From the IMG/VR virus record IMGVR_UViG_2700989544_000016: a DNA stretch of 7,174 bases. One strand, 5' to 3'. Each line of letters opens with the position of its first letter. The stretch's first letter is position 1. The position numbers and the translations under genes were made by a program. The notes under the pieces are model-generated. The model did no database searches. It saw only the letters and a list, made by a program, of their open reading frames with translations, and was not told the origin of the DNA. This document shows positions 1,310 through 7,174 of the stretch, one piece after another. Source of the stretch: a virus. Its lineage: Duplodnaviria; Heunggongvirae; Uroviricota; Caudoviricetes.

Positions 1310-1785
1310 TATCGCGTCCTCAACAATGAATTTTGTGATGCGGTGCCTAGTGCCTCCAGGTGACGTTAACCAGTTAACAATTAACGCCGGATACAGAGAA
1401 TCCACCCATAACACTGTTTTTGGTTTTAACTGTTCCGCGTGCGCTGAGCCGCATTCACCGCATCACAAAATTCACTTTTAAAAAAGGGCGGCAGAGCAGT
1501 CACGGAGTAAAACTGATACTGCCAAATGTCACCAGAATATTGATAACAGAGGGCGTTGTAGCGGGGTTGTCACTTAAGCGTATGGTCAACCTGACAACCC
1601 GGTGTCCTCAACTGGGGAAGGAATAACCCCGCCATACTTACCGCCGCGCCATTTCGCGGATTGCCACAACCGGAAGCGCACGTTCGAAGAAATCTAACGA
1701 CAAGCCTTCTAAGGGAAAGAGCTTCGCCGTACGCTTTCGCGTTGTGTGCCTGCTTTTAACCACGTCAGGCGAGGTGGTTTCCGTC

Positions 1786-2972: not shown

Positions 2973-3260
2973 TTAAGGTGTTACAGGGAACTGTCGGCGG
3001 GCGTGAACTACGTTAACAATTTCAATGCCTGAAATTGTCACGCGGTACAGAATGATGTAATTGGGGTGAGCTACAATTTCACGCAAACCAGGCACTCTGT
3101 CGCTTGGCGGGTATAAATACGGATGTTCAGATAATGGCAGGACGCAAGTCCTTAAGCGTTTCCACAAACGTTCTGCCGCATCTATGTCAAAACGTGCAAT
3201 ATAGCTGGTTATATTATCTAGGTCGGCATCTGCGCTTTCGAGCCATAAAACCGGTAACAT
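2973..3260 (-). CDS. parE: Type II toxin, RelE/ParE superfamily (ParE-like), 95 aa
   Basis: Track ORF 2973..3260. The sequence MLPVLWLESADADLDNITSYIARFDIDAAERLWKRL...REIVAHPNYIILYRVTISGIEIVNVVHARRQF matches the conserved layout of ParE/RelE toxins. The start abuts the antitoxin stop. Confidence 0.85.
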   Translation of the reverse strand: MLPVLWLESADADLDNITSYIARFDIDAAERLWKRLRTCVLPLSEHPYLYPPSDRVPGLREIVAHPNYIILYRVTISGIEIVNVVHARRQFPVTP

Positions 3261-3452
3261 TTACTGTTTGCTCCGTTCCTTGCGCATGTTAGCAAAGCGT
3301 TCAGCCATTCTGCGTTCAACTTCGTCATGGGGAATGGCTGGACGTGGATCAGCAAGGCTTGCGGCCACTTTTGCACGCAGCCATTCGTTATAACTATTTT
3401 CTTGCTCGACGGTTTCAAATTCAGAAACCATTGGTGAAAGGGCCGTGTTCAT
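3261..3452 (-). CDS. paaA: Small antitoxin (63 aa) cognate to the ParE-like toxin, PaaA2-like
   Basis: Sits immediately upstream of the toxin and is adjacent to it. Size, order and charged C-terminal half fit PaaA-type antitoxins of three-component paaR-paaA-parE modules (from memory of E. coli O157 prophages). GAGG lies 9 nt upstream of the ATG at plus 3450-3452. Overlaps the regulator gene end by 32 nt. Confidence 0.7.
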   Translation of the reverse strand: MNTALSPMVSEFETVEQENSYNEWLRAKVAASLADPRPAIPHDEVERRMAERFANMRKERSKQ

Positions 3453-3882
3453 GGTGAACCTCGTCTTGTAAGTGCTGGTAATCCTGCCTAGGAACTTTTT
3501 GTTGTGCTGCTAGCCACTTTGCAACTATACGATCCATTGTCTCTTTTTTCTCTTTCATATCTTTAAGCATTTGCTGTTGCTCTTCCTCTGGAAATGCCTC
3601 AAATGTTTGAAGTAGTTCCTTTTGCGTAGGGGTTATTTTTAATATATCCTGTGCCCTGTCCTTATTTTCTTCATTTAATGGTAAGAAAAACCAATACTGA
3701 GGAAATCCAGTCACATCAGATAGTTTATCTAGGTTGGCTGCTGTAGGGCTTGAGATGCCACAAGCCCACCTTTGGACGGATTGTTGAGCAATACCAATTC
3801 TGCGCGCAAGTTCTGCTTGGCTCCAGCCTTTTGCCAATAGAAGCATCTTAATTCTAAGAGCACTAATTTCGAGTACGCCCAT
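3421..3882 (-). CDS. paaR: HTH_XRE transcriptional regulator (153 aa), PaaR-like / DicA-like, paralogous to the adjacent repressor
   Basis: N-terminal helix-turn-helix (SQAELARRIGIAQQSVQRWACG). The central segment ITPTQKELLQTFEAFPEEEQQQMLKDMKEKKETMDRIVAKWLAAQ is clearly homologous to the C-terminus of the neighbouring repressor. No LexA-type peptidase domain. Confidence 0.8.
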   Translation of the reverse strand: MGVLEISALRIKMLLLAKGWSQAELARRIGIAQQSVQRWACGISSPTAANLDKLSDVTGFPQYWFFLPLNEENKDRAQDILKITPTQKELLQTFEAFPEEEQQQMLKDMKEKKETMDRIVAKWLAAQQKVPRQDYQHLQDEVHHEHGPFTNGF

Positions 3883-3912: not shown

Positions 3913-4284
3913 TCAGGCTCGGCGACCCTGCCGCGCCAACCAACGTGCAACAAGATCTTCCATTGCCTCTTTTTTGTTTCTTAGCTCTTTTATGATTTCC
4001 TGCTGCTCAGCGTCAGGAAAAGCACTAAATATTTGCAACAATTCCAATTGGTTAGGCGTTAATGCCATAGTTCTTGATGACGGAGATTCTGTTGTATCTT
4101 CAGGTTCCATATCAAGATACCCCCCAGGCATCCCATATGTTTGCTCAATACGTCTAGCTGCCTTTTCGCCAAACGTAGCTTTACCGCTCATTAACTGAGA
4201 TAAGTAACTTTTCTCTTTAGGCGGCAAAGTCCTGTCTTTGAACCACTCTTTGAGGCGTAAACGCCGAATCTCTTTTGTTTCCAT
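3913..4284 (-). CDS. Prophage repressor (123 aa), DicA/RacR-like, lacking an S24 peptidase domain
   Basis: Sits at the divergent promoter region opposite the cro-like gene. N-terminal phage-CI-type HTH (KEKSYLSQLMSGKATFGEKAARRIEQTYGMPGGYLD). C-terminal LTPNQLELLQIFSAFPDAEQQEIIKELRNKKEAMEDLVARWLARQ resembles my recollection of DicA. No SD before the ATG, consistent with a leaderless transcript. Confidence 0.8.
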   Translation of the reverse strand: METKEIRRLRLKEWFKDRTLPPKEKSYLSQLMSGKATFGEKAARRIEQTYGMPGGYLDMEPEDTTESPSSRTMALTPNQLELLQIFSAFPDAEQQEIIKELRNKKEAMEDLVARWLARQGRRA

Positions 4285-5110: not shown

Positions 5111-5620
5111 ATGAGTAATGACAAAAAATTGACACTGAGCGTTTACGAAAACAGTCCGCACATCTGGCGTGGCGGTTTATCTGATGTGGAGCTGGCAGAG
5201 TGGTTGATACATAAAGCTAATGCGCTGCTCTGGCGTTTGTCAGCCAGAGAACAGCGCAAGGAAACCAGAATAAAGCTGGCTGATGCAGAAGCGTGTGCCG
5301 GGCTTATTGAGGATTATACAAATCTTGGTATTTCTTCAGCAGAGAGTGATCCCATTCAGCCTCTGAGCAGGGAGTCAATCCAGCACGCTGGTTGTATGGC
5401 ACATCTTGTAACTGCTCGTCAACATGAGGTGGGTATTGGATCACTTCCGGTGGGATATTCGATGATTCCAGAGCTGGTTGAAGCAAGAAAATCAGTTCAG
5501 AAAAAGAGAGATGACGCACTTCAATTATTGAGAGAGCACTATGGCGCGATACCAGAATGCGAACAGCGTCGATACCCTGAAGGTTATGAATGGATGCAGT
5601 CTCTTTTTGAAGTTCGCTAA
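5111..5620 (+). CDS. Hypothetical protein (169 aa), unrecognised, between the CII-like gene and the replication gene
   Basis: ATG 5111 lies 13 nt after the previous stop, with a weak RBS. The track ORF 5060..5620 begins at a GTG overlapping the upstream gene. Composition is coding-like. No motif recognised. Confidence 0.55.
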   Translation: MSNDKKLTLSVYENSPHIWRGGLSDVELAEWLIHKANALLWRLSAREQRKETRIKLADAEACAGLIEDYTNLGISSAESDPIQPLSRESIQHAGCMAHLVTARQHEVGIGSLPVGYSMIPELVEARKSVQKKRDDALQLLREHYGAIPECEQRRYPEGYEWMQSLFEVR

Positions 5621-5837
5621 TCAATATGTCGAGACGAAGGTATGTTTCGGCGCGCAGCCAGGCTCTGTAATCCGGGAGCATTTCGGGGCTGTTACACCAG
5701 CGGTTTGTTGCTGCAACATTTAATACATGAGCCTGATAAAGGCTTTTCAAAAAATACATGTCGAACCTCCTCTGGTTCTGTCGATTGGGAACCACAGATT
5801 ATATCCGGAGGAAGGTTCGGCACCAGATGAGGTAGCC

Positions 5838-6149
5838 ATGCGTGATTACGCAAAAGTTTCTCCGCGATTCTGGCTGGGAGAAACGGGGAGAGAACTTAGA
5901 AAGGCGGGTGCAGAAGCGCAAGTTGTTGCTTTTTACCTGATGACATCCCCTCACGCAAATATGCTGGGTTTGTATTACCTGCCAGTTTTATACCTTGCTC
6001 ATGAAACCGGGCTTGGTCTGGAAGGGGCTTCAAAGGGGCTTCAAAGGGGCTTAAAAGGGCTGTTGAAGCTGGTTTTTGTAGCTATGACCATGATGCAGAG
6101 ATGGTCTGGGTCCATGAAATGGCAGCCTGGCAGGTTGGGGAAACGTTGA
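5838..6149 (+). CDS. Replication initiator (lambda O-equivalent, YdaU-like), N-terminal part; the frame is broken inside the 11-bp repeat at 6022-6065 (frameshift or assembly error)
   Basis: Frame-3 ORF. Likely start is ATG 5838 (GAGG 5 nt upstream, MRDYAKVSPRFWLGETGRELRKAG...); the alternative ATG 5727 is in frame but has no RBS. After ...LAHETGLGLEGASKGL the conserved-looking reading continues in frame 2, not frame 3. Confidence 0.6.
   Translation: MRDYAKVSPRFWLGETGRELRKAGAEAQVVAFYLMTSPHANMLGLYYLPVLYLAHETGLGLEGASKGLQRGLKGLLKLVFVAMTMMQRWSGSMKWQPGRLGKR
6022..6065. repeat. Iteron-like 11-bp tandem repeat cluster 1 (AAGGGGCTTCA x2, AAGGGGCTTAA, degenerate AAGGGCTGTTG)
   Basis: Direct reading of the sequence: units at 6022-6032, 6033-6043 and 6044-6054, with a degenerate unit at 6055-6065. 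One helical turn per unit. Confidence 0.7.
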
Positions 6150-6670
6150 AGCCTGGCGATAACCGTTGTGCAGGTGTCAGGAATGAGTATGCATCATTAC
6201 CTGAAAACGCTTTTCTGTCAGTGTTTTACGACAGATATAAAACGGATTTCCATCTGGATGTGAGGCGGAATAATAGCCGAAATTCGGTAAGGGGCTTCGA
6301 AGGGGCTTTTAAGGGGCTTCGAAGCCAAGAACAGGAACAGGAGCAGGAGAAAGAACAGGAACAGGACAAAAACACTATGGTTCATGGCAAAAAAAACACC
6401 ACGAACCAGGCAGGGGATGTTCAGACCGTCAATCCTGGTCAGCCAGCAGGCACGACACCGGAAGCCGATTCAGCGTATGCGCTGAAAGCCGATTCGGGCG
6501 CTGTGCAGCAGGTGATGACCGCAGGGTCGGAGCAATCACACCAACTGCAGCAGCCTGAAGCCGATTCCGCCATTCAGCGGGAAGCCGATCGGGTAGTCCC
6601 GGAAAGCACCGGGCAGTCTGTGGGACGAGTGGATTATCCGGATGTGTTCGAACAGGTCTGGCGGGAATAC
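6101..6670 (+). CDS. Replication initiator, C-terminal part in the shifted frame, truncated by the assembly gap
   Basis: Frame 2 is open from 6005 to the gap and encodes ...KRAVEAGFCSYDHDAEMVWVHEMAAWQVGETLKPGDNRCAGVRNEYASLPENAFLSVFYDRYKTDFHLDVRR... plus a QEQEQEQEKEQEQDK linker. Deleting one 11-bp repeat unit joins it in frame to the upstream part. Confidence 0.6.
6289..6326. repeat. Iteron-like 11-bp tandem repeat cluster 2 (AAGGGGCTTCG, AAGGGGCTTTT, AAGGGGCTTCG) with flanking palindromes; candidate origin core
   Basis: Units at 6289-6299, 6300-6310 and 6311-6321. Palindromes CCGAAATTCGG (6277-6287) and GGCTTCGAAGCC (6315-6326). The 33 bp are in frame, encoding RGFEGAFKGLRS. Confidence 0.65.
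6329..6364. repeat. Imperfect hexanucleotide repeat (GAACAG)n encoding a Q/E-rich linker, followed by an A-rich tract
   Basis: GAACAG GAACAG GAGCAG GAGAAA GAACAG GAACAG, then ACAAAAACACTATGGTTCATGGCAAAAAAAACACC (6366-6400). Confidence 0.6.
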
Positions 6671-6781
6671 NNNNNNNNNNNNNNNNNNNNNNNNNNNNNN
6701 NNNNNNNNNNNNNNNNNNNNNNNNNNNNNNNNNNNNNNNNNNNNNNNNNNNNNNNNNNNNNNNNNNNNNNNNNNNNNNNNN
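6671..6781. other. Assembly gap (111 N)
   Basis: A run of n characters. True length and sequence are unknown, so frames cannot be carried across it. Confidence 0.95.
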
Positions 6782-6782
6782 A

Positions 6783-7174
6783 TGCTCGTTTGCGAATTAT
6801 CAGGTGCAGAACGACGGGCAAAAATACGCGCTGAGCCAGGCCAAATCCATAGCTGACGAACTGATGACCGGGTGCACGAATTTTGTGTTCAGCGGTAAAA
6901 CCGGCACCGGGAAAAATCACCTTGCAGCGGCGATGGGTAACCGGCTGATGGCGAAGGGGCGCAGCGTGATTATCGTCACCGTGTCTGATGTCATGAGCGT
7001 GTTGCATGACAGCTACGACAACGGCAAATCCGGGGAAAAATTTTTACAGGAGCTTTGCAGTGTTGATTTGCTGGTCCTGGATGAAATAGGCGTTCAGCGG
7101 GAGACGAAAAACGAGCAGGTGGTATTACACCAGATAATTGATCGCCGGACAGCATCACTGTGCAGTGTCGGGAT
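6783..7174 (+). CDS. dnaC: DnaC-like helicase loader (AAA+ ATPase), internal fragment; start lost in or before the gap, end beyond the window
   Basis: Frame-3 translation CSFANYQVQNDGQKYALSQAK...NFVFSGKTGTGKNHLAAAMGNRLMAKGRSVIIVTVSDVMSVLHDSYDNGKSGEKFLQELCSVDLLVLDEIGVQRETKNEQVVLHQIIDRRTAS. It carries a Walker A motif (GKTGTGKN) and a Walker B motif (DLLVLDEIG), and is colinear with E. coli DnaC as I recall it. Confidence 0.85.

Follow-up and report, generated by a model that had tools for sequence, protein, structure and literature searches.

An extra 11-bp repeat unit and candidate origin iterons in the replication-initiator gene of a lambdoid Escherichia coli prophage

When the reading frame of a replication-initiator gene switches inside a tandem repeat, is the gene really broken, and why would such a repeat be kept there at all? 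The locus that raises this question is on a 7,174-nt stretch of viral DNA, IMG/VR record IMGVR_UViG_2700989544_000016 (the window, by which we mean the whole stretch), which represents the early part of a lambdoid prophage of E. coli, with DicF/DicB, a RelBE toxin–antitoxin pair and YdaS/YdaT-like genes. The gene starts at 5838 and sits at the replication-initiator position of a lambdoid prophage, in agreement with a previous sequence-only reading of this DNA. Its intact form encodes a protein of 374 amino acids (aa), with a winged-helix N-domain, a linker rich in Glu and Gln (EQ-rich) and a C-domain. The coordinates of the features discussed below are collected in Table 1.

The broken frame and its intact counterparts

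Within the first part of the gene, Tandem Repeats Finder (TRF) detected a period-11 tandem array of 3.5 copies in the window (array 1; 96% matches, score 69). The array is made of AAGGGGCTTCA at 6022-6032, a second AAGGGGCTTCA at 6033-6043 and AAGGGGCTTAA at 6044-6054, followed by the degenerate AAGGGCTG. The 11-bp unit is located in the open reading frame (ORF), in codons 62-69, and since 11 cannot be divided by 3, the gene does not survive the gain or loss of a single unit in array 1. Translation in frame 3 from the start codon (ATG) at 5838 yields 103 aa and terminates at 6147-6149; the first 68 residues (5838-6041), which end in ...LEGASKGL, agree fully with the intact protein and are followed by 35 out-of-frame residues before the stop. 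Frame 2 is open from 6020 to 6670, reading ...KRAVEAGFCSYDHDAEMVWVHEM..., and the gene continues beyond 6670 into a gap of N; a shift of -1 (or +2) would be needed to rescue the frame. These data confirm the sequence-only reading that the initiator is frameshifted from frame 3 to frame 2 inside an 11-bp tandem repeat with three full units at 6022-6054. The same reading had predicted that removal of one unit gives a continuous frame, and this repair made in silico exists in nature: L003:3139-4263, an allele with two units, specifies an uninterrupted protein of 374 aa that reads LEGASKGLKRAVEAGF. Two full units are the normal state, and the extra copy in the window is either 6022-6032 or 6033-6043, which are identical. 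As a separate observation, the three-unit allele at 6024-6059 has four runs of G separated by loops of 7 nt (GGGG-N7-GGGG-N7-GGGG-N7-GGG), which formally fits the G-quadruplex consensus; the two-unit allele has only three such runs.

To place the break in the protein, array 1 (residues 62-69) encodes the start of helix 3 of the winged helix, and helix 3 is the usual recognition helix. With the frame broken after Leu68, the 103-aa product retains little of the recognition helix and has no wing, linker or C-domain, and the initiator of the three-unit prophage is dead at the level of its sequence.

Over 6670 bp, the window and the chromosome of E. coli 2013C-4974 (NZ_CP027587.1) share 99.94% identity; they differ by three single-nucleotide polymorphisms (SNPs), one indel in a G-run and the N gap, and these differences indicate that the window was assembled separately. 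The three-unit array is present in three complete E. coli genomes, 2013C-4974, OkiPb01713 and War, and the NCBI Prokaryotic Genome Annotation Pipeline (PGAP) calls the gene 'frameshifted' in all three, as well as in a genome with one unit. The exact 103-aa frameshift product, whose tail exists only in the three-unit frame, is present on 68 contigs, and a 140-aa version starting from an upstream ATG on 38; the intact protein is present on at least 1000 contigs. Furthermore, the three-unit array was found in 10 of 10 further assemblies fetched via the 103-aa product, on two haplotypes. (For L093-L102 only the array sequences were compared with the window; positional mismatch counts are meaningless past the N gap.) Taken together, a real and inactivating gain of one 11-bp unit is almost certain, and the earlier proposal that a repeat-number change inactivated the initiator is borne out, with one unit gained relative to the normal two. 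Since the product has lost most of its functional parts and no second copy of this N-module was found in 2013C-4974, we reasonably infer that the prophage would be unable to start its own replication.

A census of array 1 was carried out with short queries spanning the tract in 5426 complete E. coli genomes, of which 469 have this module. Two units and the intact 374-aa protein (e.g. WP_072097015.1) are present in 460 of them, three units in three (two haplotypes) and one unit in one; no four-unit allele was found among the 469, and the few remaining genomes have diverged alleles. The array is thus altered in length in 4 of ~464 alleles, and the question of whether homologues carry two or three units, raised by the sequence-only reading, is answered by ~460 close complete-genome alleles that have two. 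The genomes of 2013C-4974 and OkiPb01713 contain the same prophage, with shared immunity genes and a shared IS3 downstream; an IS3 copy inserted into ydaT and the loss of 2 nt from the DnaC-like gene set them apart later, and the three-unit state was kept in both. Strain War has a different immunity region, and the 971-bp segment compared from War is 6 SNPs from the window. When each three-unit haplotype was compared with its own two-unit counterparts, the identity was 98.9% (960/971 positions), with one 11-bp gap and no other mismatch. On the simplest reading, these sequences would reflect two independent unit gains and one loss among the 469 genomes.

Table 1. Positions in the window of the initiator gene, its repeat arrays and adjacent features
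Feature	Position	Strand	Basis or remark
ECs1072-family phage-associated protein, divergent upstream neighbour	5304-5759	-	PGAP annotation in matching genome
Initiator gene, 5' fragment, frame 3	5838-6149	+	PGAP: identical sequence in NZ_CP027587.1 is 'DNA-binding protein, frameshifted'
Array 1	6022-6059	+	TRF; three full 11-bp units and a degenerate fourth
Initiator continuation, frame 2 (rest of winged helix, EQ-rich linker, start of C-terminal domain)	6053-6670	+	Matches to PHROG 1701 and 3729
Array 2, 3.3 units (AAGGGGCTTCG / AAGGGGCTTTT / AAGGGGCTTCG / AAG)	6289-6324	+	TRF; N-domain/linker boundary
(GAACAG)n and A-rich stretch encoding the EQEQEQEKEQEQDKN linker	6325-6400	+	Repeat and composition analysis
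N run of 111	6671-6781		Replaces 507 bp in NZ_CP027587.1: end of the initiator gene and start of the DnaC-like gene
DnaC-type helicase-loader gene, internal part	6782-7174	+	PRK12377 1.3e-151, IstB_IS21 (intact L003 homologue)

Selection on the repeats and the candidate origin

Array 1 is not the only place where the 11-bp motif occurs, as it is repeated in array 2, ~256 bp downstream. The 9-mer AAGGGGCTT has six exact copies in the window, three of which belong to array 2, compared with a mean of 0.05 and a maximum of 2 in 2000 shuffles. In the 80-nt linker tract that follows array 2, the + strand is almost free of T, with an AT skew of 0.6-1.0 and a GC content of 35% at 6360-6399, and this tract is a candidate unwinding region adjoining array 2.

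We then compared homologues from phage records and from one genome per species, of which 84 genes were usable; they come from Enterobacteriaceae, Proteus, Acinetobacter, Xanthomonadales and many Burkholderiales (gamma- and beta-proteobacteria), with a locus GC content of 36-69%. Nearly all homologues have the motif at +184/+195, and 80 of 85 loci have it between +428 and +462; per kb, there are 7.0 copies within the first 560 nt of the gene compared with 0.19 elsewhere in these loci. In array 1, Gly63 is encoded by GGG in 97% of the homologues (0.20 bits), Ala64 by GCT in 81%, Gly67 by GGG in 85% and Leu68 by CTT in 88%, and Ser159, at the end of array 2, is encoded by AGC in 100%; for comparison, the codon entropy of thirty other conserved G/A/L/P/T/V/R codons is 1.4-2.4 bits. 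The 11-bp unit is a quasi-palindrome, GAAG-GGG-CTTC, and array 2 occurs in the '-' orientation only in 56 loci, in the '+' orientation only in 14 and in mixed orientation in 10. The peptide encoded by array 2 follows the orientation (EGASKGL versus APSKPL), while the 11-bp phase and the position are kept. The fixed positions, frozen synonymous sites and orientation flips point to selection on double-stranded DNA that is largely blind to orientation, which would fit a symmetric dimer binding the GAAG/CTTC arms. The arrays are very probably cis-acting DNA elements, and the description of the repeat as 'iteron-like' in the sequence-only reading is strongly, if indirectly, supported on the same grounds.

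Two variations on this pattern were observed. Mixed-orientation copies of array 2 (L014, L015, L019, L055, L062, L065, L080 and L087; e.g. AAGGGGCTTGC-AAGGGGCTTCC-AAGCCCCATCG) have single units whose GGG/CCC centre is flipped in place. In the Acinetobacter loci L007, L017, L020, L028, L032, L033 and L051, one or two extra AAGGGGCTT motifs are located at -38 to -24 of the start codon, 11 bp apart where paired, and these may be an operator or a third set of iterons.

Phages with comparable arrangements help to interpret the arrays. In SPP1, whose initiator G38P is of the replisome-organiser type, oriL is located inside gene 38. The replication protein of phage Tritos (L091), which stands for this type of initiator here, has the same C-domain as the initiator studied here, with 97% DNA identity, whereas no similarity between the two N-domains was detectable (hhalign probability 0.2). 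Tritos contains GTCACG arrays at 1154-1192 (four repeats) and 1414-1462 (five repeats), which are 260 nt apart, and the second is followed by a (ACAGATAAAGAT)3 acidic linker; no AAGGGGCTT was found in Tritos. Both genes therefore have an array, ~260 nt, a further array and an acidic low-complexity linker in front of the same C-domain, and neither protein matches a Pfam model, but the repeat period is ~10 for GTCACG and 11 for AAGGGGCTT. The same layout with another motif suggests that every N-module moves together with a repeat set of its own, which is what pairs of initiator and iterons would be expected to do.

The origin of lambda and of Shiga toxin (Stx) phages lies inside the O gene, where the iterons are followed by an AT-rich tract, and the number of iterons differs between phages, with 6 instead of 4 in the Stx-phage variants, the two extra ones adding 13 residues in frame (PMC7466680). 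The gene studied here resembles lambda O in having repeated (in our case candidate) binding sites in its own coding sequence, adjoining the linker, a compositionally odd tract after these sites and a helicase-loader gene next to it, and in both cases the N-domain sets the specificity, the C-domain is exchangeable and the number of sites varies between phages. There are also clear differences: the units are 11 bp long and packed head to tail, the two arrays are ~256 bp apart with the first inside recognition-helix codons, the loader encoded immediately downstream is of the DnaC type and not lambda P, and a single-unit change is a frameshift, in contrast to the in-frame change in Stx phages. No sequence relationship to lambda O was found either, as the intact 374-aa protein matches no Pfam family at E<=0.01, including the model of the lambda O N-terminal domain, Phage_rep_O. 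The name 'YdaU/O-like' used in the sequence-only reading is therefore justified for the O-like position and layout of the gene but not for its sequence. From these comparisons, the origin is predicted to lie most likely inside the initiator gene, as with lambda O, and we lean towards the arrays being its initiator-binding iterons.

A role as cis-acting sites other than an origin, e.g. as autoregulation operators or as linkers for module exchange, is the strongest alternative, although unlikely. In Acinetobacter-phage homologues, the extra pair of motifs lies 24-38 nt ahead of the start codon, a promoter-like position that would suit an operator, and array 2 with the EQ linker sits exactly at the junction of N-modules with differing C-modules; array 1, however, is internal to the N-module and away from this junction. 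Moreover, two arrays and a strand-asymmetric tract in an initiator gene match the lambda O layout, which is repeated in the Tritos-type module, and the roles of operator and origin are mutually compatible.

We consider it probable that the explanation holds as a whole, namely that a unit gain broke the initiator and that the arrays are iterons within its gene. Several points weigh against it. A literature search for lambdoid iterons, the motif string and origin or replisome-organiser terms found no paper on this family or motif. The homologues were selected from tblastn matches spanning the N-domain, which biases the set to intact genes, and in 5 of the 85 loci the array-2 motif was not detected by the criterion used. 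Part of the conservation of array 1 is at the protein level, as the array also encodes a conserved peptide, and the second of the two unit gains could instead be a short gene-conversion tract. The stretch after array 2 is strand-asymmetric and only moderately AT-rich (GC 35-52%). Finally, the matches to the fold of the N-domain are to generic winged-helix domains, and a Foldseek search against the Protein Data Bank (PDB) gave nothing below E=0.078.

An explanation by the protein only, in which the repeats are a duplicated EGASKGL peptide with no function in the DNA, is very unlikely. It would account for the conserved peptide of array 1 and for the similar peptide that array 2 encodes in E. 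coli and Klebsiella, but not for synonymous positions that are frozen across GC 36-69%, for a Ser159 that is always AGC, or for the 56 loci in which a reverse-complemented array 2 encodes APSKPL with the 11-bp motif and its position retained.

Two other roles for the repeats were considered and rejected. Conserved pairing of arrays 1 and 2 as RNA or single-stranded DNA does not agree with the occurrence of array 2 in both orientations; in a search of the window with Rfam gathering thresholds, no RNA family was found at the repeats, and DicF was the only match, elsewhere. An internal Shine–Dalgarno (SD) or restart role of AAGGGG was discarded, as the nearest in-frame ATG (6101) is ~50 nt away and array 2 is inverted in most homologues.

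How and how often the unit number changes

The extra unit would most likely have arisen by replication slippage, or by unequal pairing of adjacent identical units, during replication or repair. The gain in the two-unit array shifts the frame after Leu68, inside the recognition helix, and leaves the 103-aa protein as the only possible product; without wing, linker and C-domain, this product would be unable to initiate replication at the prophage's own origin. The arrays would be kept at their two fixed places as the initiator's own binding sites (iterons), with the origin within the gene. A unit length that is not divisible by 3 makes an iteron array in coding sequence inherently prone to frameshifts, which occur rarely but repeatedly.

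The sequence-only reading had also suggested a reversible on/off switch, and we consider it very improbable that array 1 is a phase-variable contingency locus that often and reversibly changes length and so toggles prophage replication. Contingency loci that work by slipped-strand mispairing are known from bacterial pathogens, and array 1 has in common with them a tandem repeat within an ORF whose unit is not a multiple of 3, so that a change of +/-1 unit shifts the frame; a gain and a loss of one unit were both seen, with gains on two haplotypes. In contrast to such loci, array 1 has only 2-3 units and is nearly monomorphic in the 469 genomes, with exactly two units in 460 of the ~464 close alleles (460:3:1 for two, three and one), four units in none and no sign of reversion. 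The three-unit state outlasted the divergence of two genomes by an IS3 insertion and a 2-nt deletion, and the affected prophages bear further lesions, which suggests decay rather than regulation. In view of the near-monomorphic length distribution and the stable inheritance of the three-unit state, the tract behaves as a rare, recurrent slippage hotspot rather than as a phase-variation switch.

A more far-reaching scheme would be that the arrays serve as origin iterons in a so far undescribed phage replicon, widespread in gamma- and beta-proteobacteria, whose initiator has a recognition helix encoded by its own binding sites, that a change in unit number acts as a heritable and occasionally reversible toggle of replication, and that the iterons of a switched-off prophage act as decoys, titrating the initiator of incoming phages with the same origin type. 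We regard this as a long shot. The idea of iterons as decoys, or of titration by them, is comparable to the 'inhibition phenotype' of lambda (PMC3349717).

Rescue of the three-unit allele by a leaky or programmed -1 ribosomal frameshift at A_AAG_GGG (6032-6038), which would give a full-length initiator with a GASK insertion, is scarcely credible. The site is a formal X_XXY_YYZ heptamer in phase, inside the rescue window 6005-6146, with an SD-like AAGGGG upstream and a possible GCTTCAA/TTGAAGC stem downstream, but the spacings of these stimulators are atypical and the base on which the heptamer depends (N in TCN-AAG) varies within the family (A 0.42, G 0.40). In addition, the two-frame state is rare and derived, with a single ORF across array 1 in 460/469 E. 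coli alleles and 84/84 homologues, and the product would bear four extra residues (GASK) in helix 3, the recognition helix.

Least likely of all, and rejected, is the repeat-collapse or assembly artefact that the sequence-only reading had offered as an alternative, with a third unit created in a draft genome and the true gene intact. In its favour are the N gap 617 bp downstream of array 1 and the many E. coli members of the protein family that are contig-end partials, indicating a locus that is hard to assemble. Against it, the array occurs in three finished chromosomes from different laboratories, in the 10/10 further assemblies with two haplotypes and, through the exact product and its 140-aa version, on the 68 and 38 contigs mentioned above; at 33-44 bp it is shorter than any read, and the N gap lies outside the array, in a C-domain common to up to four prophages per genome.

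With the unit gain as the preferred reading, the frameshift represents prophage decay of an ordinary kind, which RefSeq flags already. It would mark the three-unit prophage as unable to replicate by itself, which bears on induction and mobilisation in E. coli lineages of the Shiga-toxin type. A more useful by-product is the candidate origin, consisting of the two 11-bp iteron arrays and the linker tract. The locus would also be a natural example of dual coding, in which putative binding sites in recognition-helix codons freeze synonymous sites across GC 36-69%.

The initiator family and the surrounding prophage

The initiator belongs to a widespread family that has no Pfam model, for which no literature was found and whose members are named only 'DNA-binding protein'. 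PHROG 1701 ('DnaD-like helicase loader') matches the protein from end to end (1.7e-148), and the C-half is also matched by PHROG 3729 ('replication initiation protein'). Membership of the replisome organiser/DnaD-like family was rejected, as no Pfam match was found and this label comes solely from PHROG 1701. Assignment to the DnaT family was rejected as well: the last ~24 residues (SEPDTEIPPGFRG) resemble the C-terminal tail of DnaT, but an NCBIfam scan of the intact protein gave no family and only this tail match (17.8 bits compared with a cut-off of 201), and a PDB sequence search with the intact protein likewise returned only the DnaT tail. This DnaT-like tail is the reason why some phage homologues are named 'primosomal protein I'.

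The C-domain is common to many lambdoid 'O / primosomal protein I' proteins, and the DNA of the C-half is 95-98% identical to that of other coliphage genes annotated as 'replication protein O / primosomal protein I'. The C-half is present in 2065 E. coli genomes, compared with 469 for the N-half, and the initiator gene is therefore modular. Before the C-domain, a 36-nt direct repeat (6458-6493 and 6554-6589 of the window, 75% identical) contains four copies of GAAGCCGAT and encodes PEADSA.../(K/E)ADS motifs; the same pair is present in phage Tritos, and may represent a repetitive protein segment or additional sites in the DNA.

Behind the N gap, the 507 bp in NZ_CP027587.1 contain the 2-nt deletion that frameshifts the DnaC-like loader (position 7460 of L001). 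The loader is intact in OkiPb01713.

Further upstream in the window, the DicF antisense RNA was identified at 1486-1537 (-) (Rfam RF00039, 69.3 bits compared with a gathering threshold of 48), and together with dicB nearby in the matching genome it places the window in the early region of a Qin/Rac-like lambdoid prophage. The RelE/ParE toxin and RelB antitoxin pair occupies 2973-3452 (-) of this early region. A single indel separates the window from NZ_CP027587.1: one G of a G-run at 2967, in the spacer just before the relE stop, which is probably a homopolymer sequencing difference. Next to the toxin–antitoxin pair, PGAP annotates a helix-turn-helix gene at 3421-3882 (-) and a hypothetical gene at 3913-4284 (-). 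These two adjacent repressor-like genes have a similar C-terminal segment, TPxQxELLQxFxAFPxxEQQ...KKExMxxxVAxWLAxQ, and look like tandem paralogues.

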